Counted from the first letter of the stretch, positions 2,421 through 47,663 are shown. The stretch is DNA of 57,339 bases from a virus (IMGVR_UViG_3300035659_000014:1-57339), one strand, 5' to 3'. Notes: generated by a model from the sequence alone, not told the origin. Numbers and translations: made by a program.

Positions 2421-2700
2421 GGGGCGGCTCCTCCTGCCCGTCGACGCCGGCGAGCAAACCGGTCACGTCCCCGACCGGCACGCTGTTGCCGGGTTCGATG
2501 AGTCGCCGCAGTAGGTCGTACATCTTCGGCGCCGCGATGATGAGGCGGGCGTTGGCCGGCGTCGTGCTCTCGCAGATCAGGTGCCCCCCGTAGTACGCGA
2601 CATCGTCCGAACCGCGAGGCCCGCCTTCGATCGGCACATCTGCGACAACGCCGCCGGCCTTGCCGAGGCGCCACGGGCCGGGAGTGAAACGGTCAGCCAT
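2413..2700 (-). CDS. Small phage protein, TPGPW..ANARLIxAAP family
   Basis: ATG after GGAGG; recurrent phage motif; paralog at 5237..5554. Confidence 0.65.
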   Translation of the reverse strand: MADRFTPGPWRLGKAGGVVADVPIEGGPRGSDDVAYYGGHLICESTTPANARLIIAAPKMYDLLRRLIEPGNSVPVGDVTGLLAGVDGQEEPPHE

Positions 2701-3295
2701 GATCCGCCTCCTTCTGCCGCCCCGCGTGTGCCTCCTGTCCCGTATGCCCGCCAGGCGCCCGTCCGCGCACCGACGACGCCTCACGGAGCGGATACGTCGC
2801 GCGCTCGTCGCGCAGGCCGAGGTTGAGGTATTCGCCACCGTGGCCATCGGCCGCGCCATCCCAGACGACGGCAAGATTCATCACGCCCGGTGCGACTTCG
2901 ATCCGGTCGCGCACGCGCAGGACGCGCACGAGCAGGGATTCGTCGCCGTCCTCGACGGGCACACCCAGACGCCGCAGCATCGCGCGCGCGGTGAGCAGAT
3001 AGCCGAGAATATCGGCGTCGCCGGGCCGGCACTCCCGCAGATGATCAAGTACGGCGAGCACCATCAGCGCCCAGCGCCGGATCCGCCGATCGTCGTACTG
3101 CGCGAGCTGCGCCGGGAACGAGACGCGGCCGAGCGGCACCAGGATCACGTCGCCGTCGCCCGTGCACAGGCGCGGCAACGGTGCCGGGCCCTCGAACCCC
3201 AGGAACACACCGAGGTGCCCGAGGTCCGGCTGATCGAGGATCAGCACGAGCCGCGGCGGGTCGTCCTTGACAGGGGAAGTGGCCTGTTGGATCAT
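2693..3295 (-). CDS. Hypothetical protein
   Basis: Protein-like ORF coupled to the next gene. Confidence 0.5.
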   Translation of the reverse strand: MIQQATSPVKDDPPRLVLILDQPDLGHLGVFLGFEGPAPLPRLCTGDGDVILVPLGRVSFPAQLAQYDDRRIRRWALMVLAVLDHLRECRPGDADILGYLLTARAMLRRLGVPVEDGDESLLVRVLRVRDRIEVAPGVMNLAVVWDGAADGHGGEYLNLGLRDERATYPLREASSVRGRAPGGHTGQEAHAGRQKEADHG

Positions 3296-3356
3296 GGGGT
3301 TGCTTCGACTCACTTTCTGGCCGGCGTTCACAGCGCCGGCCGCTTTGTGTACGGCC

Positions 3357-3680
3357 CTACTTCGGCAGCAGTTCGTGTGTGACCTTCTTCTGGTACACGG
3401 TCACCAGCGCGTACTCGGCGACCAATTCCCCGCTGAACGCTTCGTCGGCGTCCTCCGCCGCCAGGAACACGTCCTCATCAGGACCGGCATTGCGGTCCCG
3501 CTGCACGTACATCTGCTCTGGAAAGTCCGGCTTTACCTTCCTCGTCCTTGGCATTCGTTCCTCCTTCTTCGGGGGCTTTGTTCCCATGCAAGTGCAGTCC
3601 TGCGAATCGAACAAGAAACCCGAGTAGCAGCCGCAGCAATGAACATCCAGCGCGACGCCGTACTTGCACACCGGGTCCAT
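3357..3680 (-). CDS. Hypothetical protein (alternative start at 3554 has a strong SD)
   Basis: C-terminal half resembles 51183..51395. Confidence 0.5.
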   Translation of the reverse strand: MDPVCKYGVALDVHCCGCYSGFLFDSQDCTCMGTKPPKKEERMPRTRKVKPDFPEQMYVQRDRNAGPDEDVFLAAEDADEAFSGELVAEYALVTVYQKKVTHELLPK

Positions 3681-7174: not shown

Positions 7175-7378
7175 CTACGCCACCTTCGACAACTTCGACT
7201 TCCCGCGCATCGCGCGATCGAGATCGCTCACCAGGAACCGCAGCGCCTTCCCGTACCGGCATCGGGGCACGCCGTGCTTCTTCGCCCACTGGCGGAAGCC
7301 GTGCACGGACCCGGCGCGGACGTAGAACGCGGCTTCGGGTGCGGTCAGGTAGATGCCGGCGAGATCGTCGTGGGTCAT
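7175..7378 (-). CDS. Excisionase-like wHTH protein
   Basis: YLTAPEAAFYV..VPRCRYGKALRFLVSDLD; ATGA overlap with cro; near integrase. Confidence 0.75.
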   Translation of the reverse strand: MTHDDLAGIYLTAPEAAFYVRAGSVHGFRQWAKKHGVPRCRYGKALRFLVSDLDRAMRGKSKLSKVA

Positions 7379-7590
7379 GCCGCGCTCCGTACGAAGAACG
7401 CTTCGAATGGGATGCCCGTCTCCGCGGCAATCCGGAAAGCGAGATCGGGTCGCGGCCGTCGCTGGCCGCTGATGATCATCGAGACCTCGGCCTTGCTGAT
7501 GCGAAGCTTGCGGGCGAAGTCCGCCTGCGCGATGTGGTTCGCGGTCAGGTACGCCCGGAGCGGATGCGATCGTTTCCTTTGGTTCACCAT
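7375..7590 (-). CDS. Cro-like XRE HTH regulator
   Basis: AQADFARKLRISKAEVSMIISGQRRP; divergent from cI-like gene. Confidence 0.85.
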   Translation of the reverse strand: MVNQRKRSHPLRAYLTANHIAQADFARKLRISKAEVSMIISGQRRPRPDLAFRIAAETGIPFEAFFVRSAA

Positions 7591-7746
7591 ACGCGAACGA
7601 GGATACACGGAGAGCGAACGATATGCAAGAGCTCATTGTAAATTCTTCGAAACACCGTTCGCTATTGGATAACCCGTGGCCGGCCAGTGGGTTACGCGAA
7701 TATTTCGCTCTTGCGGCGGGTTCACGACGGGTGAATGATTGACGGA
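7591..7746. promoter_or_regulatory. Divergent lysis/lysogeny switch with promoters and candidate operators
   Basis: Minus strand TTGCAT-17-TATCCT before cro; plus strand TTGCGG-17-AATGAT before cI; GCGAACG at 7593 and 7614, inverted at 7656; GCGAA-TAT-TTCGC palindrome near 7696. Confidence 0.6.
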
Positions 7747-8338: not shown

Positions 8339-8764
8339 ATGTTCTTCGCCTTCGTCGTCGCCGCGGTCCTGGTCGCGTCGCCGCAATCGAAACCGATGGA
8401 GTTCAAGGACGCCCAGATCCAGACACAGAGCGGGGACAAGACCAAGCGAGCCAGCTGCACGCTCCGCTACGAGGACGATCGACTCGTCATCGTGGTTGAC
8501 AAGAAAAAGCCGGAGAGGAACGTCACGCTCCGGTACGCAGACATCACTGCCGGAGAGTACGCCTTCGGCAAGTCGCCGCGCATCGCCGCCGCGTTGCTGC
8601 TCTCTCCGTTCTTCTTGTTTTCCAGTTCGAAAAGCCACTGGCTGACGGTGAAGACGAAGGACGACTTCGCCTTGCTGCGACTCGACAAGAGCAATTTCAA
8701 GCTGGCGATCGCCGAGCTCGAAAAACGCGCGCACATCACGGTCGCCATGCTCGGCGAACGGTGA
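8339..8764 (+). CDS. Exported/membrane protein in immunity cassette (possible superinfection exclusion)
   Basis: Signal-like N-terminus, internal TM segment, between cI and int. Confidence 0.6.
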   Translation: MFFAFVVAAVLVASPQSKPMEFKDAQIQTQSGDKTKRASCTLRYEDDRLVIVVDKKKPERNVTLRYADITAGEYAFGKSPRIAAALLLSPFFLFSSSKSHWLTVKTKDDFALLRLDKSNFKLAIAELEKRAHITVAMLGER

Positions 8765-9888
8765 GCGTGGGTCTGTACGCGAGAACCGATTCCCCGCACT
8801 GGTGGATGCTGCTCGAAGGCGCGCCGCCGCGTCAGAAGCGGCGCAGCACCGGCGTGCTCATCGACGCGCCAACGCCGGACCAGCGCAAGGATCAGCGCCA
8901 GCTCGCCGATCAGATCTACCACTCGGCCATGACGGATCTGGCGCGCGGCCGCGCGGGGTTCGTCCAACCGAGCGCCGGGCCGAAGTTCGCGGACTGCGCC
9001 GACTGGTACGCGAAGCACGTCATCCCGCAGCATCGCGGCGCCGAACGCGAGCGCGAACTACTGGCCACGCTGCGCGCCGGCTTCGGTCCCAGACACCTGC
9101 TCGAAATCACCGGGCAGGTTGTGGATGAATGGGCGACGACCCGGAGCGCCAAGGCCAGCTACCGCACGATCAACCGCGAGATCGATCTGCTCAAGGCCAT
9201 GCTGCGGAAGGCCGTTGAGAACGGAGAGATCACGGCCTCGCCGATCGCGGGCAGGCGGCGGTATCGCGTCCTGAAGCCGCGGCGCCGGCTGATGACCGCG
9301 CGCGAGGAAATGAAGCTGTTGGCGAAGCTAGCGCCCGACGACACGGCGATTTTCCTGCTCGCCCTCGACTCCCTGATCCGCTTCGGGGACATCCTCGATC
9401 TGCAATGGGCCGACTGGCAGGGATCGTCCGTCTACATCCGCGATCCGAAAGACCCAGTCCAGGGGGAGCCGTACGAGGTGCCGATTTCAAAGCGCGGCCA
9501 GGCGGCCCTCGAGGTCCTGCCGGTCAACGGGCCGTACCTCTTCCCGCGGCGCCGGAAGAACCGGACCGAGCATGATCGGCGGAAGGCGTACCGCCAGCGG
9601 CTCGCGCGCGCATGCAAGCAGGCCGGCATCCCGTACGGCCGGACCGCGGGCGGCCTCACGTTCCATTGGGCGACCAGGCGCACCGGTGCCACGCGGATGA
9701 TCCAGGCGGGCATCGACCCGGCCACCGTGCAGGCGGTCGGACACTGGCAGAGCCCGGCTGTCGTGCTCGGAATCTACGCGGAGGGCAACCGCCGGACAGC
9801 GCGCCGAGCGGTCGAAATCCCGGGCGGCCAATCACGCCGGAGAACACAGCCCAAAAAAGGCGTCAGAAATAGCCGAAAACGTCGATAG
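8761..9888 (+). CDS. int: Tyrosine integrase
   Basis: TINREIDLLKAML, LIRFGDIL, FHWATRRTGAT, GHWQS..IY catalytic set. Confidence 0.9.
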   Translation: MSVGLYARTDSPHWWMLLEGAPPRQKRRSTGVLIDAPTPDQRKDQRQLADQIYHSAMTDLARGRAGFVQPSAGPKFADCADWYAKHVIPQHRGAERERELLATLRAGFGPRHLLEITGQVVDEWATTRSAKASYRTINREIDLLKAMLRKAVENGEITASPIAGRRRYRVLKPRRRLMTAREEMKLLAKLAPDDTAIFLLALDSLIRFGDILDLQWADWQGSSVYIRDPKDPVQGEPYEVPISKRGQAALEVLPVNGPYLFPRRRKNRTEHDRRKAYRQRLARACKQAGIPYGRTAGGLTFHWATRRTGATRMIQAGIDPATVQAVGHWQSPAVVLGIYAEGNRRTARRAVEIPGGQSRRRTQPKKGVRNSRKRR

Positions 9889-11308: not shown

Positions 11309-11347
11309 CCGTAGATGGCCGCCGCGAGGCGGTCGGAGGTGAGGACG

Positions 11348-11614
11348 ATGACAACCACGACGACACGACAAATCTGGTGGGACCGCGGCGGCAATACCCC
11401 GGCGTGGCCCTGTGGCTGGTGCTGGGGCGAATGTGAGCGCGACGACGACGGCAAGATCATCGAGAGCAACAGCGGACCGCTGGCCGGCACGGACTCCGGC
11501 GACCCGACCGAACTCCACGCATACACGGACGAGGAACTCCGCGCGCTGGCGCAAGCGCAGTTCCCCAGCGAGACGTGGGCCGACGTCGAGATCGACCCCG
11601 ACCCGAAACAGTAG
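11348..11614 (+). CDS. Acidic hypothetical early protein
   Basis: GGAGGTGAGG SD; D/E-rich. Confidence 0.6.
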   Translation: MTTTTTRQIWWDRGGNTPAWPCGWCWGECERDDDGKIIESNSGPLAGTDSGDPTELHAYTDEELRALAQAQFPSETWADVEIDPDPKQ

Positions 11615-11675
11615 CCCCTGCCTCGGTTGCTGGCCGCCTGGACCAGCGCGGAGATGGAGGTCGGAGGTAAGAGCG

Positions 11676-11882
11676 ATGCGGGTACACGCGCCGCGTCGTC
11701 GAATTGTAAAAATTCTGGGAGTGCAACCAGGGCGTTCTTTCGGATTGCACGGTCGAGGCGCGATCCGATGGTTTCGGCTGGAGTGTGGACACGAGATATA
11801 CGCTGACGCATCGCGTGGCGTCCCGAAACGTGGCGTGTTGGGTTGCTACCGCTGCTCCCTAATCACGACAATGGAGGACTGA
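11676..11882 (+). CDS. Small zinc-ribbon protein
   Basis: GGAGGT SD; LECGH..CYRC. Confidence 0.55.
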   Translation: MRVHAPRRRIVKILGVQPGRSFGLHGRGAIRWFRLECGHEIYADASRGVPKRGVLGCYRCSLITTMED

Positions 11883-11967
11883 CCCTGTATCGGCTGCTGG
11901 CCGCCCACGGGATAGCTCGCGGGCGACCGGGAGCCGGCAAAGCGCCGGACATACTGGAGAGGACCGC

Positions 11968-12411
11968 ATGACGACTCAGCCCCACACCCATTACTGCCCG
12001 CACTGCGAGCAGCAACGGCCGTGCACCGCCGCAGAGGATGGCGGATGCATCTTCCCGGCGACGTCACCCCTGACCTGCGAGCCATGCGCTGCACGTCCTA
12101 TTTCTCGGGCTGCTGCGGTCCTCGGTCGCAAGGGCGGCCGATCCACCAGTCCGGCGAAGCTCGTCGCAGCGAAGCGCAATGCTGCCTACAACGGCCGGGC
12201 CCCCCGCGTGCCGTACACGACCAGGCGCTACGGGACCCCGTTCGGGTGTGAGGGCGAGCGCAGTGAGGATGTGCCGACGCTGCGGGCGGCCGATCGCTAC
12301 GCCAGGTCCGCCCTACTCGCCGGCCAGTCACTCGACGTGCTGCGCGGGGATGAGATCATTGCGCGGTGGACGTGTGGACCGGATGGCGTTGTCGGGCGGG
12401 TGAACCTGTGA
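11968..12411 (+). CDS. Zinc finger plus LGRKGG..SPAK motif protein
   Basis: CPHC, CEPC, AAAVLGRKGGRSTSPAK. Confidence 0.55.
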   Translation: MTTQPHTHYCPHCEQQRPCTAAEDGGCIFPATSPLTCEPCAARPISRAAAVLGRKGGRSTSPAKLVAAKRNAAYNGRAPRVPYTTRRYGTPFGCEGERSEDVPTLRAADRYARSALLAGQSLDVLRGDEIIARWTCGPDGVVGRVNL

Positions 12412-12617
12412 CGCGCCGACCTTGCGCCTGGCCGGGCTGCACGAGCCGCACGTCGAGCACGAGCGTGACGCCGCGCTGCCAGCGGCACCACCGGGAATAC
12501 TGGCAGAGAGTGGTCGGCTGGATTGTCGAGACGGGGCCGCGGTGTATCCACCTGGACGCGCCGACGATGGCGGAGATGGTGGCGGCAGAACAGGAGGAAA
12601 CGGCATGCTCGCGCTGA
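12408..12617 (+). CDS. Small Cys/His protein
   Basis: GTGA overlap; CAWPGC..CQRH. Confidence 0.45.
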   Translation: MTRRPCAWPGCTSRTSSTSVTPRCQRHHREYWQRVVGWIVETGPRCIHLDAPTMAEMVAAEQEETACSR

Positions 12618-28100: not shown

Positions 28101-29304
28101 GCGCCAACTTGCGGTCGTTGGCGATCTGCTGGTCGGCCAACCCCTGCTCGTGCGCGAGCCGCACGTACAACTGTTGGTCGGCAGTCAACGGCACCAGGGC
28201 AGCGTGTCCCTGCTGCCATGTCGTGATCTGGTTCCGCCAACCCTGGGCATCAGTCGTGAGCGTCTGCGCCACCTCGGTGTTGGCTACCGCGAGATTCTTC
28301 TGGCCGGAGATAAGGGCGACCGTTTCCCGCGTCCGGGCTTGCAACCCGGCAATCTCCCCGGCCAGCACTTTTGCCCGCATCTCGTCTGTGGCCGTTGACG
28401 CCGCCGGAACCGGCTCGGTAGCGGGTCGTCGAAACCCCCAGCCAACCCGACCAGTGAGTAAGTCTGCCGCTGGCAGGACCGTGTCGGGGTGCAGCACGCG
28501 CAGCCAGAAGCCTGCTCCCTCGACAGCGCCAGTCTTAAGCCAGCCGACCAGGATGCTGAATTGCTCGCCCACTTCGTGGACACGGGCGATCGAGTCCTCC
28601 GAAGCGATCAACCCTGTCTCTCGGGCAAACTCACGCGCCTCCGGCACACCGCGATTGATGAGGGCCATGAGTTGCTGGACGCCGCGGCCGTAGAGATCGG
28701 TGCCGAGACGTGCCTTCGTCCCCTCGGAGTCAACATGCCTGAGTGCTTCAGCGGTCTGCTCGAAGACCTGGTCAGGGCTCAGCCCGCGCAGTCGTTCGGT
28801 GCTCAACCCGAGGAAGTCCAAGGCGGCCCTGGTCGCGACGTCCCCTTCTGCGATTCGGCGCGAGAGTTGGAACACGCCCTGCGCCATCGTCTCCATGTCG
28901 ATGCCGACACTTTTGCCCGCGACGCCGAGCTCCTGCACGGCCGTGGTCGACATGCCACTGGCGAGCGCAATGTCGTGGACCCGTTCCGCGTAATCGATCA
29001 GATGCTTGATGGCCTGGACAACCCCGGCGAGCGACAGCGCCACGCCGAACGCCCCCGCCAGCCGCGTCACGACACTCATGGTGCCGCCGAGCTTCTGCGC
29101 CGTGGCGTCGAGATTCGTGGTGTGCTTGCCCGCTTGCTGCGCCGCTTGGCCGCTGGTCTGAATCGCACGGCCGTACTGGTCAACGAGCCCGCTGGCGCGG
29201 GTCGCGGTCTGGCCGGTCTTGTCGATCTCTTTGTCGAGCGTACGGAAGGCGGTGGTCGCCTTGCCCGTATCGACATCGACGACGATCGTGAGTTGTCGGG
29301 CCAT
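25156..29304 (-). CDS. Tape measure protein
   Basis: About 1380 aa, Ala-rich helical, hydrophobic Gly-rich patches, HxGG..EGVVN C-terminus; follows chaperones. Confidence 0.9.
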   Translation of the reverse strand: MARQLTIVVDVDTGKATTAFRTLDKEIDKTGQTATRASGLVDQYGRAIQTSGQAAQQAGKHTTNLDATAQKLGGTMSVVTRLAGAFGVALSLAGVVQAIKHLIDYAERVHDIALASGMSTTAVQELGVAGKSVGIDMETMAQGVFQLSRRIAEGDVATRAALDFLGLSTERLRGLSPDQVFEQTAEALRHVDSEGTKARLGTDLYGRGVQQLMALINRGVPEAREFARETGLIASEDSIARVHEVGEQFSILVGWLKTGAVEGAGFWLRVLHPDTVLPAADLLTGRVGWGFRRPATEPVPAASTATDEMRAKVLAGEIAGLQARTRETVALISGQKNLAVANTEVAQTLTTDAQGWRNQITTWQQGHAALVPLTADQQLYVRLAHEQGLADQQIANDRKLALASVVAYLKILDEAAQKQKQYAEAVKAATAAQIPLSAQQEIDIQYYQKRGLAEGQIALLLHIGEGAIRSYSTAAAERNAVDDLWAKSVADLHVKTTALWEEIAKKQQAATNAQVLEQLTTYKEFHDKNADLALHGADLQVAQITRARDADIDAAKRRFGADSELARMTTAELTAYYQHQIDLANSTADTVEERLRAQGIFTQTELDKTAQIARQDFEAMRAKGTYTAEQLRAAWQQWYDAEQSARGMWVKGFLADLDGIAAAFQQLAQVSGGSMSDMARWLGMTISSMVLGAKATRTFGETLYGMEDGAIGTAQGIATLTVSVLQMAAAMEQATSSTSRWKNALSGAATGAAIGSEVNVPYGTIIGAGVGFLYGLFKHVDPYAEELKKRLDTTVTYAQWKLKELDANTSFDQLKASLVSTYGSLAEIDRWAKILGVDLPAAFTLGGTGGPGTAGLKGLQDTAKLFAETLAAFTDRLMAATDKGGLVTQDLLNFIRGTKDAGLEVKAVTDFLEKQRGLAVSGANALAAAVVPIAALAKEIDLAKAAADAIRDLTDAQASGARTLEGYVVQTDLGAIGVDGLRQAEEKAKIAAEKARSERDYRTGTAEAAESAEQSYAIAVDRRMQAEKDAAKVTADLAAKREERARAEARIAALGAEGPEAYARAGRLMVATFNLERAAGKSLLEALTDLAPGFDDLAKAAEQFHWTAEGAFGSLVHISDWARANPEQAGAVTALNNLAVGTANYGLMTQATFQDLAATATGQFRGMVGLEGKPGLSEAEALAVMQPTLQTLWMLQQRHPEYTLDEGTKRLLAEAEAAGIIGEAQMDAANRTASATDRTAAATEYMGELLYQIATRAPTGTAAAPPWIEEGAEREYHSGGVVEPWITRHGGAYVPGVWAGAQQFHAGGQVPIWALPYEGVVNHRGMRTLGRAGLDRLNAGGSFGGGSVNLPVRIVTINERVLVEVLLENLQEVKTAIAGRSG

Positions 29305-32563: not shown

Positions 32564-32773
32564 GTGATGACCGACGAAGACCGCGTCCTGCCGTTTCTAC
32601 CGCGGCCGCCAAGATCACGCGACATCATCGTTGTCGAACAACCGCACTCACCGACGCATCCCGTAATCGTGCGCGCGATCATCCCCTCCCCAAGTGAAAT
32701 ACCCGCCGACATCGTACCGTTCCCGCCTCGGGATCACGGCACGCCTCCGGACTCCTCGAACGGATCAACATGA
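32564..32773 (+). CDS. Small antisense Pro-rich protein, leaderless
   Basis: TATAAT at 32551-32556 then 7 nt then GTG; fills a gap in the minus-strand operon. Confidence 0.4.
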   Translation: MMTDEDRVLPFLPRPPRSRDIIVVEQPHSPTHPVIVRAIIPSPSEIPADIVPFPPRDHGTPPDSSNGST

Positions 32774-35748
32774 ATCGACTCGCCCTCGATCTGCTTGCAG
32801 ACCTGGGCGACCTCATGATCGACGAATCGCTTCAGTTCGACCCCATCCCGCACCCAGATCCGTTTCGGTTTCGCGTGCCCGCCGTCCATGCCGCCATGCT
32901 TGCCACCGAGGGCGAGTTCGATCTCCAAGCCGCCGAGTTCCTTCACCGCTCGCTCGTACCAGGGCCGCGCGATGCCGTGATACTTGTCGGCCGGGTCCGC
33001 GAAGTGCCGCTCGAAGAGTTGAATCGCCGTGTGGTAGTACGCCTGCGCCGTCGCCGTCATGGCGCCGTTGACCGACTCGCGGTCATAGTCGGCCAGGTTG
33101 ATCAGGTCGCGCAGCACCAGCACGCCGCCCAGCCGGCGTTCGGGGAACGCCTTCCGGTCCTTCTGGAGGAGCGGCAGGTTGCGCTTCAGCATCTTCTCGC
33201 GGCGGATGCCTTCGTGCAGATACCCGAGGTGCGCGATCGCCACGTCGTGGATTTCGAGGCCCGGATGAATGTCCGTGTTCGCGTCCTGCCAGCCGGGTTG
33301 CTCGTGCACGCAGCCGAAGAACCGGATCTCGGGGACGCGCCGGAAGATCCGGATCGGGGTATCGGCGTGCATCGGTGCATCGAGCATCAGGTGGTTCTGC
33401 CGCACCGCATAACCCTTGAAGATCCCGCCTTCGAGGTACTTGCCGAGCGCGCCCGATCCCGCGAGGAATTCATCCGTGTCGATCCAGAAGAACCACTCGC
33501 CCGTACACGTCGCGAGCACCCGGTTGCGCGCACCGGCAAAGCCTTCGTCCTGATCCGCGATTGACCCGAGGCGCAGGATCCGCGCCCCGTAGCGTTCGGC
33601 AATTGCGATCGTGTCATCGGTCGAGCCGGTATCGCCCAGGACGATCTCATCGGCGATCGCCCAGATACTATCGAGACAGCGCGCCAGATCGAGCCCGGCG
33701 TTGCGCGCGATAAGGCCCACCGAGAGACGGGGCATCGGGCGGGTCGTCAGGATGCGCTGCTCGACGTCGCGCGGGCGAGCCGGACGGCCTTCCGCCTTGC
33801 GGTAGCGGATCATCCAGTGCCCGGACGCATTCCCCCGGTTCGTCGGGCCGACGTGCAGATAATCAACTGACACGTCCCGTTTCGCCCCGAAGACCTCGTG
33901 CAAATCGCCCCAGCCGAAATGATGCACGTGCCCGCGGAGGAGTGGGATCGTGCGGGGCAGGAGTTCGACGAACGGGCCGTGTGGAACGGTGTAGAGGATG
34001 ACGGCGCCATCAGCGACGAACTGTTCGAGATGGTCGATCGCCTTGTCGCAGGCCGCGACGTGTTCGAGGAACTCGCCGACGAACATCCCGTCGACCAATT
34101 CGATTCCGGCCGCGTCGGGACCGAGCGGCAGCGCCCAGCCGAGGTGACTGTCTGTCGGCGGGGCCTGGCGCTCGAAGTCCCAGACCGACAACTGTTCGAA
34201 GCGGACGCGGTCCGCGAGTCCGAGTTTCTCCGCCATCGCCCGAGCGCGCACCACGTTCGCCTCGCTGTAATCGACGCCGACGACTCGAATCTCGGGATAC
34301 TTCTGCGCGAGCAACAGCGCGAACGACCCATTCCCGCACGCCACATCGAGGACATCCTTGCAGCCAGCGAAGTGCGGCAGGACGATCCCCATGCGCCCGC
34401 GTGTGCCCTCGTTCTCCATCTCGACTTCGACGTCCTTGACTGCTCGCTCGCCGTAGTCCTCGGGGCCCTGCTCCTCGCCGGCAATCACGCGGCGGCAGAG
34501 TTCGTCTGCGAAGTAGGCTTCGCCAACTTGGTCAGGCGTCGCGCACTGCAATCCCTGCGCAAGGATGCCTCCGGCGAGCTGCTTCGCCGCAACACAATCG
34601 TCCTCGTGCAGCAGTTGTCGCAACACGCCGATTTTGTTCGCCTTGAACCGCGCCCGGAACGTCTCTTGGAGCCAGCCGTCCCATTCAGTGGCCAGAACCT
34701 CGAATGTGTAGGCTCGCGCATGCTCGCGGCCTTCCCGTTGCGCATCGCGGTAATCCCGTGACTGACGCGCGCACCCATCCAGCGCCTCGCAGACCGCGTC
34801 GAGCGACTGCGCTTGGTAATCGGGAGATTCGGCATCGCCATGAATGAGCGCCCCGCTCGGGACCGTCTCGGGCAGCGCGCCTTTGAAGGAGCCGACGAAC
34901 GGCGTCCCGCACCCCTGCGATTCCGCCGCCGCAATGCAACCCGTCTCCGCGAAATCCTTGACGCCCGGATACCACATCACGGCGGATTCGGCGATCGCCC
35001 GATAGAGATCGGGCTTGTTCAATTCGCCGAGATAGGCGATGCCGCCGACCTGGTCGTTGACACGCTGCACCTCCGCGTCGAATTGCGCGCAAATCTGGCC
35101 CCAGCCCTGCATGTCGTACATCGAGCTGTAGCGGCAAATCTGGAGCGTTGTCGCCGGATGCCGCGCACGCAGGCGCGGCCACATCGCAAGCAATGGGCCC
35201 AGGCCCCGCTCGGGCCGGCTGATATGGATGATCCGGTTCGGATCTTTCGTGACGTTCGTCGGGACCAGCGACGGATCGAACCCGTTGCGCGTCACGTAAG
35301 CCAAGCCCTTGAGTTCCGGCAACCGCTCTTCGTACTGCTGCCGCTGATACTCGGACACATAGACCATGCGATCGACCGCCCACATGATCGACATGAGGGC
35401 GGGCGGCACCATGAGCAGATCCTGGTTCCACAGCAGGCGCAACTTCGCCGGGATCCGGTGCGCGCCGAAGATCGGGAACATCCGCAGCACGCAGAACACG
35501 TCCCAATCCGTGAAGTTCGAGATTTCGACGATGCCCTCGGCCGGTTGCCACCGTACGCCGGCCTGGTCGGGACCGTAGCAGTCGGGATCGAGCTTGGTCG
35601 CCAGGATCTGGACGTCGTGGCCCTTCGCCTTCAGCGCGCGCGCCAGGCCCAGACAGGCAGACTCCGACCCACCCAGCGAGCAGGCGCCACTGAGGACGTC
35701 CGGGGTGATCGGAACCGAATCGACGTAGAAACCGATCGTGAGTCGCAT
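32734..35748 (-). CDS. GT4 glycosyltransferase, SAM methyltransferase and GT2 glycosyltransferase fusion
   Basis: LGGSESA, ISRPERGL, ETGCIAAAESQGCG; VLDVACGNG..EFLEHV; LSVGLIARN..DTGSTDDT..WIDTDE..GCVHEQ. Confidence 0.9.
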   Translation of the reverse strand: MRLTIGFYVDSVPITPDVLSGACSLGGSESACLGLARALKAKGHDVQILATKLDPDCYGPDQAGVRWQPAEGIVEISNFTDWDVFCVLRMFPIFGAHRIPAKLRLLWNQDLLMVPPALMSIMWAVDRMVYVSEYQRQQYEERLPELKGLAYVTRNGFDPSLVPTNVTKDPNRIIHISRPERGLGPLLAMWPRLRARHPATTLQICRYSSMYDMQGWGQICAQFDAEVQRVNDQVGGIAYLGELNKPDLYRAIAESAVMWYPGVKDFAETGCIAAAESQGCGTPFVGSFKGALPETVPSGALIHGDAESPDYQAQSLDAVCEALDGCARQSRDYRDAQREGREHARAYTFEVLATEWDGWLQETFRARFKANKIGVLRQLLHEDDCVAAKQLAGGILAQGLQCATPDQVGEAYFADELCRRVIAGEEQGPEDYGERAVKDVEVEMENEGTRGRMGIVLPHFAGCKDVLDVACGNGSFALLLAQKYPEIRVVGVDYSEANVVRARAMAEKLGLADRVRFEQLSVWDFERQAPPTDSHLGWALPLGPDAAGIELVDGMFVGEFLEHVAACDKAIDHLEQFVADGAVILYTVPHGPFVELLPRTIPLLRGHVHHFGWGDLHEVFGAKRDVSVDYLHVGPTNRGNASGHWMIRYRKAEGRPARPRDVEQRILTTRPMPRLSVGLIARNAGLDLARCLDSIWAIADEIVLGDTGSTDDTIAIAERYGARILRLGSIADQDEGFAGARNRVLATCTGEWFFWIDTDEFLAGSGALGKYLEGGIFKGYAVRQNHLMLDAPMHADTPIRIFRRVPEIRFFGCVHEQPGWQDANTDIHPGLEIHDVAIAHLGYLHEGIRREKMLKRNLPLLQKDRKAFPERRLGGVLVLRDLINLADYDRESVNGAMTATAQAYYHTAIQLFERHFADPADKYHGIARPWYERAVKELGGLEIELALGGKHGGMDGGHAKPKRIWVRDGVELKRFVDHEVAQVCKQIEGESIHVDPFEESGGVP

Positions 35749-35835
35749 GAGGAAGATTCCCTGCCTGCCCTCCTGCCTCCATAGTGGGGCGCCGGGGGGA
35801 GGTGGCCCCAGCGCCCCCAACGTCGCACCCCACGG

Positions 35836-45162: not shown

Positions 45163-45653
45163 TGCCCCTCCGGGGTTTTCAGCCCGCCATCCGGCAAGTA
45201 CCGGCCGCCGAAGACGACCGACGTGACGGCGATCGGGATCGAGCCGCCGCCCGGTCCGCCGATTTCAACGTGGTCGCGATACTTCTGCGGCTTCTCCGCT
45301 CTCAGTCGCGCCAGCAGAAGCATGTCCGAGTACTTTCTGACCGCTCCGCAGACCTTCCCCTGGTAGAACGCCGGCTCCAACCAGCCCTCAATCGCCCGTC
45401 GATCGGCTTCCCGCTCCAGCAGATCAGCCCGCTGCTCCCTGGCGTCCTCGAATGCCTTGACGTAGGCAGCATCCACCTCCAGCCAGTTGTAGTGCGTGCG
45501 CCGGCCGATTTTCGCTTTGAGACTCGCGTGGTAGACCGTGCCCTCCAGCATGTAGGCATCAAGGAATGCCCGCTGCAGATTTTCGGTGGTAGGTGGTTCG
45601 TGTGCCACGGAATGCGCCGTCACACGCCGAGCAGATTTCTTGCGCGTCGTCAC
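45159..45653 (-). CDS. terS: Terminase small subunit
   Basis: QRAFL..IGRRTHYNWL..LEREADRRAIEG..KYSDMLL..KPQKYRD; coupled to terL. Confidence 0.85.
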   Translation of the reverse strand: MTTRKKSARRVTAHSVAHEPPTTENLQRAFLDAYMLEGTVYHASLKAKIGRRTHYNWLEVDAAYVKAFEDAREQRADLLEREADRRAIEGWLEPAFYQGKVCGAVRKYSDMLLLARLRAEKPQKYRDHVEIGGPGGGSIPIAVTSVVFGGRYLPDGGLKTPEGQ

Positions 45654-45711
45654 GCCGATGATCGTACACCCGAGTTGGAATAGTGTTTACGAAACCCCCG
45701 GCGGGACGGAT

Positions 45712-45933
45712 TCAGTTCGAGGAAACCGTTGGGGTATTGATGACCGAACGGGCGCGGAACGTGGTGCCCTCGCCGACTTCGGCGGTCGCATCGTTGACGG
45801 CTGCGCAGAAGAACTGCCCGACCGTGAGCGAGCACGCGGTAGCGGCACGTCGTACCAAGTCGTACTCAGACTGACTCAGACGAAACGCGATGACTCTCAC
45901 AAGCGGCTCACCGCGAAGAGGCGGACGTGACAT
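45712..45933 (-). CDS. Ribbon-helix-helix regulator
   Basis: VIAFRLSQSEYDLVRRAA..LTVGQFF. Confidence 0.6.
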   Translation of the reverse strand: MSRPPLRGEPLVRVIAFRLSQSEYDLVRRAATACSLTVGQFFCAAVNDATAEVGEGTTFRARSVINTPTVSSN

Positions 45934-45972
45934 GTCGAATCCTTCCGATTCTATCGTGCGCCGAAGCGCCCT

Positions 45973-45992
45973 TTACCCGACCTTGCCATACC
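45973..45992 (-). repeat. Short GGY-NN pentamer tract
   Basis: GGT-AT GGC-AA GGT-CG GGT-AA just after the stop of 45999..46502. Confidence 0.55.
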
Positions 45993-45998
45993 CCAGGT

Positions 45999-46502
45999 CT
46001 ACAGATTCCCCTTGACCGCATCCAGCATCTTCGCAAGCGGTAGTTTGTCGTTCGCTTCTCGGACCGCGCCTTCGAGCTTCAGCATCGTCTGCGACCGCGT
46101 GACGTGCCGCAAAATCCCGAACACGCTGAGGCCGGCGTTGTGCTGGACCTTCGTGTCATTCGGCAGTGCCGCGAAGTCCTGCACGGAGCTCATCTCACGC
46201 GCGCCCATCGTCGCGGTTCGGCGAATGTGTCTCAGCCGCTGGCCAGCGGTTCCCACGATCCCGTGATCGTCCAGTCGCTTCAGCCCAACGTCGGTCACGA
46301 CGCCGAAGACGATCCGATCCTGCGCGAGCAACCGCCGACGCGCCGAGTGCAGAATGTGTCGCGCGCCGTTCTGCACGTCACGACCGATGGCCTTCGAAAG
46401 TTCCTCGTACGACACGATGGTGCCGACGGCCGATGCTCTCAGGGTGCGTTCGAGCACCTGCGTATCGACGCTGAGTTCTGGGACCGCTCGCTTCTCTGCC
46501 AT
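45999..46502 (-). CDS. wHTH-like hypothetical protein flanked by pentamer tracts
   Basis: AAGGAG SD; GTIVSYEELSKAIGRDV..VFGVVTDVGLKRL. Confidence 0.75.
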   Translation of the reverse strand: MAEKRAVPELSVDTQVLERTLRASAVGTIVSYEELSKAIGRDVQNGARHILHSARRRLLAQDRIVFGVVTDVGLKRLDDHGIVGTAGQRLRHIRRTATMGAREMSSVQDFAALPNDTKVQHNAGLSVFGILRHVTRSQTMLKLEGAVREANDKLPLAKMLDAVKGNL

Positions 46503-46515
46503 GATGAAAATCTCC

Positions 46516-46605
46516 TTGTCTTGCGTTACCAGGCCGTGCCAAGTCATGCCGGGCCACGTCGGAACGGGCCACGTCCTGTCATGTCCCATCGCGCCATGCC
46601 ATGTC
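46516..46605 (-). repeat. 18-unit period-5 GRY-NN tract (candidate guide-like ncRNA)
   Basis: 16 of 18 consecutive pentamers begin with G[GA][CT] on the minus strand. Confidence 0.85.
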
Positions 46606-46781
46606 CGCTTTTGGGCGCCGCCCCTGGCCGTCGGCCGACAGCCTGCCCGCCTTTCCGTACGGGTGTGGGACGGCGCCCAAACTGGATCCGCTGCTACCTC
46701 GGTGCTACTAACCGCTCGGGCTGTCCGCTCGGGGCCGCCGCCGTTGCACCTTTGAGCCCGGTCGGTTCGCCATCATGCCCT

Positions 46782-46994
46782 TTACCTGGCTCCTGTACGT
46801 TTCCCCTGGTCGACCCTCAGCTGCGCCAACGATCGCTCGGCTTTCACCGCTCGGTCCAGGCGGTCGACGTGCTCGTACCCGAGATCCCACCACATCCAGC
46901 CGGACGATGTTGGCGGGTACGGGTTCGTTCGAGGCTGGTTGTCTCCGCGCGCACGACAGCCTTCCCGGAAGTAGTCCTGGTTGAGCATCAGCAT
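46782..46994 (-). CDS. Hypothetical protein
   Basis: EGCRAR..NPYP..WDLGY short phage motif. Confidence 0.55.
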   Translation of the reverse strand: MLMLNQDYFREGCRARGDNQPRTNPYPPTSSGWMWWDLGYEHVDRLDRAVKAERSLAQLRVDQGKRTGAR

Positions 46995-47037
46995 GTTCTC
47001 GCCTCATTCGCTCTTGGCCCAAAAACCCTCGACCAGC

Positions 47038-47271
47038 TCACCACGCCGCGGGGACCGCATCGGCCTCGAAGAATGTGGCCGTCCGTCGTTGGATGACCGT
47101 CCCCCCGCAGCCGCAGCGCCAAGTCTCGACGAGCTGCCCCATCAATCCGGGATCGGTGCGCTCATCCGCATCCGGTCCGAGGGCCTCGTCAACGTCCGCC
47201 GCGATCCCATTGGCCATCTCGTCATCGACCAGGGGGAGGGGCGTCTGGTCGTCGTGCTGGTCGTTCGGCAT
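47038..47271 (-). CDS. Acidic hypothetical protein
   Basis: GGAGGAG SD. Confidence 0.55.
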   Translation of the reverse strand: MPNDQHDDQTPLPLVDDEMANGIAADVDEALGPDADERTDPGLMGQLVETWRCGCGGTVIQRRTATFFEADAVPAAW

Positions 47272-47357
47272 GCGCTCCTCCCTCGCTTGAGCTACTTAGT
47301 CCCTACTTGGATGCCGATCGCCCCGCCTGAGCCAACCTGAGCGGTTTTTCAGGCATC

Positions 47358-47663
47358 CTAGCTGCTGACCCCGATCACCGCCAGCGCTTCGTCCACGTTC
47401 CACACGAGATCCACGTCAGCGCCAGCCCTCGCAGCAGCCTCAACCCAATCGCACTCCGCATCAGTCAATCCGCGCTGGCTCAGTGGCTTTGAGCCATCCT
47501 TGACCTCCAGCACGCGCCAGCATCCGCGGTAGCCGACGAGCAAATCAGGGCAGCCTCGACCGACTCCGGCGAGTGACTGGACATGCGCCCCGCACTTCCT
47601 GAGTGCCTGGACGATCTCGGCTTGGTTCCGATCGACCCGCTGCCGCTGGCCTCGCTGAATCAT
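47358..47663 (-). CDS. VRR-NUC-like PD-(D/E)XK nuclease/resolvase
   Basis: VDRNQAEIVQALR..GCPDLLVGYRG..LEVKD. Confidence 0.85.
   Translation of the reverse strand: MIQRGQRQRVDRNQAEIVQALRKCGAHVQSLAGVGRGCPDLLVGYRGCWRVLEVKDGSKPLSQRGLTDAECDWVEAAARAGADVDLVWNVDEALAVIGVSS

Follow-up and report, generated by a model that had tools for sequence, protein, structure and literature searches.

How does a viral genome come to carry what looks like an array of guide-RNA repeats, joined to the start of a small gene, and yet encode no protein that could use it? The question is raised by one locus of a virus record in IMG/VR, the whole of which (57,339 nt, 100% complete according to CheckV) is the window analysed here. 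A reading made from the sequence alone had proposed a VIPR-like guide-RNA locus without an effector, with GGY/NN guides and gapped targets as the point of resemblance, in agreement with the published description (10.64898/2026.04.26.720920). In the accounts of these systems, Vipr is a minimal RAMP with one protomer per vrRNA repeat; the vrRNAs hold 9-16 GGY/NN repeats and a conserved 3' tail; the NN dinucleotides read two of every three DNA bases and skip the third; and vap genes are accessory, with relaxed repeats (NNNGG, YNNNG, NNNNG) also described (10.64898/2026.04.26.720920; 10.64898/2026.04.26.720927; 10.64898/2026.10.15.759431). VIPR was described in 2026, and the experimental cases presented are phages of E. 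coli and Pseudomonas with a strict GGY repeat. Here we provide evidence that the tract in the window is very probably a VIPR-derived vrRNA array. The array itself, the handle at its 3' end, the membership of the neighbouring gene in a vap family and the link of its relatives to vipr all support the earlier proposal.

On the minus strand, the tract reads GACAT GGCAT GGCGC GATGG GACAT GACAG GACGT GGCCC GTTCC (units 1-9) and GACGT GGCCC GGCAT GACTT GGCAC GGCCT GGTAA CGCAA GACAA (units 10-18). G[AG][CT]NN, a G-R-Y triplet followed by NN, fits 16 of the 18 units and strict GGY only 8, with A at the second position of the triplet in 8 units and G in 9. The best of all 18-unit windows on the plus strand of the whole genome has 8 fits, and the 15 top-scoring minus-strand windows of this length all lie at 46560..46635, overlapping the array (Table 1); the 18-unit GRY-NN tract of the sequence-only reading is thus confirmed. 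A period-5 detector that presupposes no consensus returned a single peak in the 57-kb genome (3.35 bits, with 2.40 for the next best). Positions 1 to 5 of the repeat carry 1.69, 0.75, 1.35, 0.30 and 0.18 bits. The last two values exclude a microsatellite or slippage repeat, which needs near-identical units and had already been dismissed in the first reading. Tandem Repeats Finder was likewise silent at the tract, as expected where two of five positions vary.

The dinucleotides of the presumed guide part run AT AT GC GG AT AG GT CC CC GT CC AT TT AC CT and are of low complexity, with 9 distinct NN among 15 units. The array also has a 15-nt sub-period, on which the sequence-only reading was silent, and GACGTGGCCC is present in it twice (units 7-8 and 10-11). 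Multi-unit internal duplications occur in the arrays of relatives as well (GGCAT GACTC GGCCT ... GGCAT GACTC GGCTT at L003:5259-5338; 46530-46575 in the window), a pattern which suggests that arrays grow by three-unit slippage.

Table 1. Features of the locus, in coordinates of the window.
Feature	Coordinates	Strand	Remark
vrRNA-type array, whole tract	46605..46516	minus	18 consecutive pentamers, direct reading
Presumed guide part of array	46531..46605	minus	15 pentamers, G-R-Y + NN
15-nt (three-unit) tandem sub-repeat inside array	46530..46559	minus	80%, repeat search
Constant terminal units GGTAA CGCAA GACAA (NN = AA AA AA)	46516..46530	minus	clade-typical array 3' end
Handle 10-mer CAAGACAAGG	46514..46523	minus	spans array end and tail start
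Short tail GGAGATTTTCATC	46503..46515	minus	between array and vap ATG (46502)
vap-family gene, 167 aa, intact, full length	45999..46502	minus	ORF start ATG 46502
Four GGY-NN units GGTAT GGCAA GGTCG GGTAA	45992..45973	minus	directly after vap stop
Small GCGC-UUCG-GCGC hairpin	45958..45969	minus	folding, after the four units; whole 76 nt no better than shuffles
Inverted repeat, 15-nt arms, 93% complementary, 42 nt apart	46610..46681		immediately 5' of array

As first noted, the tract runs directly into the Shine-Dalgarno sequence of a 167-aa gene: the GGAG of the tail GGAGATTTTCATC doubles as its ribosome-binding site and is followed by the ATG. The gene is intact and translationally coupled to the array, and the overlap of tail and ribosome-binding site may couple guide production to translation of the accessory gene. 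Its protein has no match in Pfam or PHROG and belongs to a family of 18 homologs besides itself at E<=1e-3, all of about 165 aa; its closest relatives are 77%, 74% and 71% identical and are encoded on contigs of 62,447, 9,904 and 7,250 nt, respectively. An AF2 model (pLDDT 86) has an N-terminal winged-helix-like domain and three long helices, and a fold search with this model found no match at E<=1e-3, with weak wHTH resemblance only. The sequence-only reading took the gene for an orphan wHTH gene. That description does not hold, for the gene belongs to a vap family that elsewhere always stands beside vipr.

This became apparent from the DNA around vap relatives, for which 17 loci in IMG/VR, one new metagenome locus and one MAG locus make up 19 distinct loci. 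The metagenome scan with the single Vap protein gave two loci, one of them a duplicate, and the scan of a genome collection gave one distant MAG locus. In 19 of 19 loci, vipr and period-5 arrays are on the same strand with the arrays flanking the genes, vipr being a partner gene of ~185-200 aa within about 1.3 kb of vap. The flanking pentamer tracts and neighbouring RAMP-fold gene that the first reading had proposed to look for among homologs are thus present throughout. Partner genes score at E<=2e-48 with a profile of five partners (L027 at 5.6e-99). In the PDB they match one sequence only, the 'SUSP1 Vipr protein' (36pp_D; E 0.0024 with a single sequence, 2.2e-7 with a profile), and hhalign aligns the partner profile to SUSP1 CDS 28477-29061 at 96.7% over 130 columns. 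The predicted partner structure (pLDDT 79.6) has a Cas7-type RAMP fold that matches 98 chains at E<=1e-3, with type VII Cas7, Csm3 and Cas7-11 at the top. By sequence and modelled fold, the partner gene is Vipr. A search by array pattern extended this association: all 21 contigs with a strong same-strand vap have vipr within 435 nt, four of them already in the first set and 17 being further independent contexts. Altogether the 167-aa family adjoins vipr in 36 of 36 other independent contexts, as an accessory gene would.

The same gene raises the possibility of a variant that needs no RAMP, in which the repeat is used as RNA or bound as DNA by Vap, alone or together with a host factor, for example as an anti-VIPR decoy that sequesters the Vipr filaments of a rival or their targets. 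That vap has been kept and is coupled to the array speaks for such a variant, since the vipr-null phages described in the literature lost vap1 together with vipr (10.64898/2026.10.15.759431). However, vap accompanies vipr in every other context and Vap resembles, and that weakly, winged-helix DNA binders only, and we consider a RAMP-independent variant quite improbable.

The arrays of the relatives share the grammar of the tract in the window. In the nearest subclade (L001-L004, L009, L019) they consist of G-(G/A)-C plus NN and end in ...CGCAA GACAA GG as in the window; tract ends among the relatives are ...GGCAA CGCAA GACAA or GACAA GACAA. Pooled over 245 units in 18 arrays of five vipr-positive relatives, the five positions carry 1.41, 0.77, 1.72, 0.10 and 0.04 bits, with G at 63% and A at 31% of second positions, a profile of the same shape as that of the window. 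The relaxed triplet that the sequence-only reading had remarked on is therefore real, but it is a property of the clade and no sign of decay, because arrays that stand beside vipr have it too. Regularity also compares well, with 16 of 18 units in the window and between 7/7 and 8/13 in vipr-positive relatives. Pairs of close relatives, rather than the window itself, reveal that the NN positions are hypervariable relative to the constant triplets. Between L005 and L006, 1 of 180 constant positions differs, as against 48 of 120 NN positions and 61 of 525 positions of vap DNA; between L011 and L012 the corresponding figures are 13/216, 24/146 and 28/456. Equal conservation of dinucleotides and triplets, which the sequence-only reading had named among the outcomes that would speak against a guide, is not what these pairs display.

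The constant triplet differs by subclade within this one Vipr/vap family, taking the forms G(G/A)C, C(G/A/T)C, GTT and CAC; variant examples among L005-L017 are L005:6858-7140, L008:5780-5930 and L010:5228-5290. The Vipr G-loop GIGRFRPRNNGxYGRF is unchanged in L001-L009 while the array triplets differ by subclade.

These comparisons bear on whether the repeat acts as DNA, either as an array of operators or iterons bound by the winged-helix protein or as a packaging signal by the terminase genes. Its position would suit such a role: the gene directly downstream encodes a DNA-binding-like protein, and the small terminase gene follows at a distance of about 850 nt from the array. Protein-binding iterons, however, conserve the whole unit, whereas constant triplets with hypervariable NN are the signature of a vrRNA, and the same arrays flank true Vipr homologs, always on the coding strand. 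We therefore regard a DNA-level repeat as extremely improbable.

The 3' end of the array provides a second line of evidence. The window has a single copy of the handle CAAGACAAGG, at the array end, against an expectation of 0.07; in 8 distinct vipr-positive loci there are 14 copies, on the gene strand every time. A tail of the form GG(A/T)N..YTTYA is likewise found before the start of vipr or vap in L002, L003, L009 and L019, so that handle and short tail are common to the window and its relatives. The pseudoknot tail of SUSP1 has no counterpart after the array, where no significant fold was found, and searches against Rfam were negative for the window locus and for six relatives.

Directly after the vap stop, four further GGY-NN units follow, also reported by the sequence-only reading. 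They are real and statistically weak by themselves (two such four-unit runs in the genome, with 0.4 +/- 0.7 expected), and their weight comes only from their position after vap, where relatives carry one or two full arrays. We conclude that this run is probably the stump of a downstream vrRNA array. To a strict GG[C/T]NN caller, only these four units qualify as an uninterrupted run of at least four.

On the other side, the inverted repeat immediately 5' of the array is specific to this phage, being missing upstream of the relatives' arrays, and its predicted fold is not significant (z = -1.4). Folds in the flanks of the array are no better than those of shuffles, and no sigma-70-like promoter sites were found at the locus; a look-up of RNA runs likewise listed none that contains it. 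Contigs in two runs match 46608-46651, in the region of the inverted repeat, and then continue, exactly from the array start (loose ends at 46605), into unrelated G-rich sequence; the array may thus begin at a junction that is variable or arose by recombination. In another sediment run, a contig has 46793 joined to 47317, a variant without 523 nt that contain a 70-aa and a 77-aa ORF upstream of the array. Contigs from two other sediment runs cover fragments of the locus only and do not bridge the array.

Where, then, is the effector? The sequence-only reading had seen no RAMP-like ORF in the genome, and every search agreed. No Vipr was found in the window by tblastn with the Viprs of five relatives (best E 0.6), by a narrow profile of the same five (best E 5.2), by a search of the complete genome or by an iterated profile built up to 81 hits in 78 loci, which returned nothing even at E<=1. 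The G-loop motif shared with SUSP1 is absent from all six frames of the window, hhalign placed 26 of 26 unannotated ORFs below 2% against the Vipr profile, and Pfam assigned no Vipr among 65 ORFs. A Logan contig from what is probably the source sample shows the vipr-less junction itself with 0 differences; the sample being the same, this is no independent confirmation. A nucleotide search with 45600-47400 matched no deposited phage, a terminase-based search of IMG/VR found no related phages, and the matches in a protein atlas were all unnamed viral clusters.

An effector might be encoded elsewhere in this genome and be overlooked, either as a Vipr too divergent to recognize or as a non-homologous RNA-binding protein. 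RAMPs are notoriously divergent, many ORFs of 120-290 aa in the window are unannotated, and our five-sequence profile did miss divergent Viprs in about 18 array loci. Yet the iterated profile that recovered those Viprs finds nothing here, the motif and hhalign comparisons are equally empty, and in relatives vipr always lies about 1.3 kb or less from vap, a space that has been fully read in the window and holds no such ORF. A hidden effector is thus very improbable. Vipr in the defining sense (a minimal RAMP with an RRM core, G-loop and thumb) is found in the relatives and is missing from the window, and for this reason the locus is not a complete VIPR system.

Two genes elsewhere in the window, one repressor-like with HTH_3 (7378-7608, minus) and one for a tyrosine integrase (8761-9885, plus), indicate that the phage is temperate, which would fit a guide waiting in a lysogen for a competitor. 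The structural genes include a 1,028-aa ORF (32737-35820) with glycosyltransferase and methyltransferase domains.

What the locus is can be stated in terms of a category that has already been described. A report of October 2026 (Lopez et al., 10.64898/2026.10.15.759431) presents satellites and 346 vipr-null enterobacterial phages with solo vrRNAs, which must borrow Vipr in trans, describes experiments in which satellite solo vrRNAs redirect the Vipr of SUSP1, and applies the term solo where an array is called and Vipr is missing from its contig or from the 20 kb around it. With an array and no Vipr on a complete record, our locus is a solo vrRNA locus by this definition. Read against the gene order of its relatives, it is a vipr-null remnant of a vrRNA-vipr-vrRNA-vap-vrRNA operon. 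The likely route, judging from the layout, is loss of vipr by deletion between the two arrays that flanked it; because arrays share their 3' ends, such a deletion would yield the present arrangement, in which one long array runs into the vap start and a stump of four units remains beyond the gene.

To learn how often arrays of this type stand alone, we scanned IMG/VR for four G-R-Y units plus the handle, which gave 87 stretches and, from these, 80 loci on 74 contigs. The union of the narrow and iterated profiles places vipr on 53 of the 74 contigs and on none of the other 21. Restricting the count to the 36 contigs on which the array is flanked by 3 kb or more in each direction leaves 27 with vipr and 9 without it by either profile; solo arrays therefore recur in the clade. 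An earlier count of 41 vipr-less loci out of 80, from the narrow profile, was discarded as inflated, because divergent Viprs sat right after some of those arrays. The nine well-flanked vipr-less contigs (L032, L054, L057, L064, L075, L077, L087, L090, L099) have arrays of this handle type, 6-15 units long, with Vipr missing from the surrounding 3-4 kb, and are candidate solo vrRNAs outside Enterobacteriaceae phages. The combination of vap and array without vipr is much rarer. It occurs in 1 of 37 contexts, the window being the sole exception, and the only other candidate for vap without vipr (L093) is a weak match at a contig end. In protein clusters, the vap family numbers 19, as against at least 6,124 for the Vipr clade (90% identity, E<=1e-5, among 8,000 scored).

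The reading that we favour, tentatively and at somewhat less than an even chance, is that the solo vrRNA and vap act with a Vipr supplied in trans. We envision a scenario in which the array, transcribed on the minus strand, forms the leader of the vap mRNA and is inert on its own. When a related vipr-positive phage or prophage is present in the same cell, its Vipr protomers would bind the array, one per G-R-Y repeat, and expose the 15 NN, which would read a DNA site of 45 bp, two bases in every three. The complex would silence that site, or Vipr would simply be drawn off the rival's own guides, and Vap, being winged-helix-like, could help at the DNA. This scenario builds on the observed array, its handle, the homology of its context to vipr-vap loci, the absence of vipr and the hypervariable NN of relatives. 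The regularity of the array, the exactness of its handle, the intact vap, the recurrence of solo arrays in the clade and the published activity of solo vrRNAs speak for a functional guide. Against it stand the uniqueness of the vap-array state, the low complexity of the guide, the reduction of the downstream array to four units, the failure to find a sigma-70-like promoter and the outcome of our target searches.

For these searches the 15 NN were taken as 30 positions under a rule that skips one nucleotide after each pair, with at least 80% NN match above controls as the benchmark. The guide reached at best 21 of 30 in its own genome and 18 loci, where the shuffled maximum was 22. Across the 80 array loci, 524 kb that take in vipr genes as well as arrays, it reached 22 of 30, and the shuffled maximum was again 22. 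Three overlapping 9-unit seeds gave 1, 1 and 4 hits in IMG/VR, with extensions of 1-6 out of 12, at chance level; the best of these hits totals 24 of 30 in an AT-rich contig, its extension also at chance. In the reverse direction, 175 guides from other loci produced two matches of at least 0.8 in the window genome, and so did shuffled guides. The location of seed hits in the reading frame in which the skipped base is the wobble base was set aside as target evidence, as chance hits in coding DNA favour that frame. The gapped search which the sequence-only reading had recommended thus yields nothing above shuffled controls in viral loci or IMG/VR.

The main alternative, serious if doubtful, to which we give roughly one chance in three, is that the locus is a fresh relic: a once complete operon from which vipr and the greater part of the downstream array disappeared recently, and whose leftovers are unused as a VIPR system and undecayed. 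The state of this locus, unique among 37, is what a recent accident would be expected to produce. A relic would also account for the absence of a target above shuffles, for the internal 15-nt duplication and repeated NN of the array, and for a four-unit stump where relatives carry full arrays. The 3' units of the array would be kept regardless of guide use, since they carry the ribosome-binding site of vap. That explanation does not extend to the 5' 75 nt of the array, which have no coding or ribosome-binding role and nevertheless retain 13 of 15 G-R-Y units and the profile of the family. Further points against a relic are that vap is intact, that the clade has solo arrays on a quarter of its well-flanked contigs (9 of 36), and that solo vrRNAs are described as active in the SUSP1 system (10.64898/2026.10.15.759431). 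We continue to favour, with the reserve stated above, a solo guide that borrows its Vipr.

Comparison with the published systems places the locus more precisely. Like the solo vrRNAs of vipr-null phages and F5 satellites, it is an array on a viral contig without Vipr, presumably served by a Vipr in trans and left behind by deletion of the effector. The solo loci described so far belong to SUSP1-family phages of Enterobacteriaceae and have strict GGY repeats and a long pseudoknot tail, and in the phages among them vap1 went with vipr. The present locus differs in that it keeps its accessory gene, intact and coupled to the array, follows a G-R-Y grammar, ends in a short tail that overlaps a ribosome-binding site and belongs to another habitat and clade, that of a 64%-GC sediment phage. 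With the type II exemplars of VIPR, SUSP1 and P. fulva, it shares a viral location and a pentamer of constant triplet and variable dinucleotide, and in its relatives the arrays likewise lie up- and downstream of a two-gene vipr-vap operon whose accessory protein is predicted to bind DNA; it differs from both in having no vipr. The thumb and G-loop of the SUSP1 Vipr are reported to hold G2 specifically, whereas position 2 here is A about as often as G, and the G-loop of the relatives given above contrasts with GVGDWRPRFGRF in SUSP1. The SUSP1 gene beside vipr, which from its position we infer to be vap1, has no detectable homology to our vap family (1.2% in a profile comparison).

The relatives' Vipr has a Cas7-like fold and in this respect resembles the Cas7 backbones of Class 1 CRISPR systems. 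Unlike CRISPR loci, these loci have no CRISPR repeats or spacers and no adaptation genes, and the guide would be read noncontiguously. The logic of the window locus is nonetheless that of orphan CRISPR arrays, in which a guide array outlives its effector or travels without it.

Two further loci emerged beside this family. On contig L015, which also has a vipr-vap pair of the other repeat type, GGC/TGC-NN arrays lie on either side of a second, distant Vipr-like ORF (11616-12227, E 1e-10; whole region 11333-12425), so that one contig has two VIPR systems. In phage DSL-LC04 (L028, OR003939.1), a CDS within 2500-3432 that was deposited as 'helix-turn-helix transcriptional regulator' is a weaker homolog of Vipr, and the 320-nt intergenic gap before it contains a canonical GGT-NN array; this named phage thus probably has a VIPR locus that was left unannotated.

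The retention of both guide and accessory gene also leads us to speculate on a bolder idea, which we regard as unlikely: that the two have been kept as a two-part anti-VIPR or 'effector-borrowing' module, in which the leader RNA captures the Vipr of a competitor and Vap directs or disables the resulting filament. If this is true, the function of Vap would be separable from that of Vipr, guide and accessory gene could be selected without a RAMP of their own, and vipr-less vap-guide modules would constitute a new layer in phage-phage conflict.

The environmental Vipr clade to which the relatives belong is large (the at least 6,124 clusters noted above), with A or G as its second constant base and with sister triplets CGC, GTT and CAC, and a caller restricted to strict GGY would miss such arrays. 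The effector-less arrays found on its well-flanked contigs extend the idea of the solo guide beyond enterobacterial phages. Within this clade the genome described here is a natural dissection, with guide and accessory gene present and no effector, which makes a separate role of the accessory gene directly testable.
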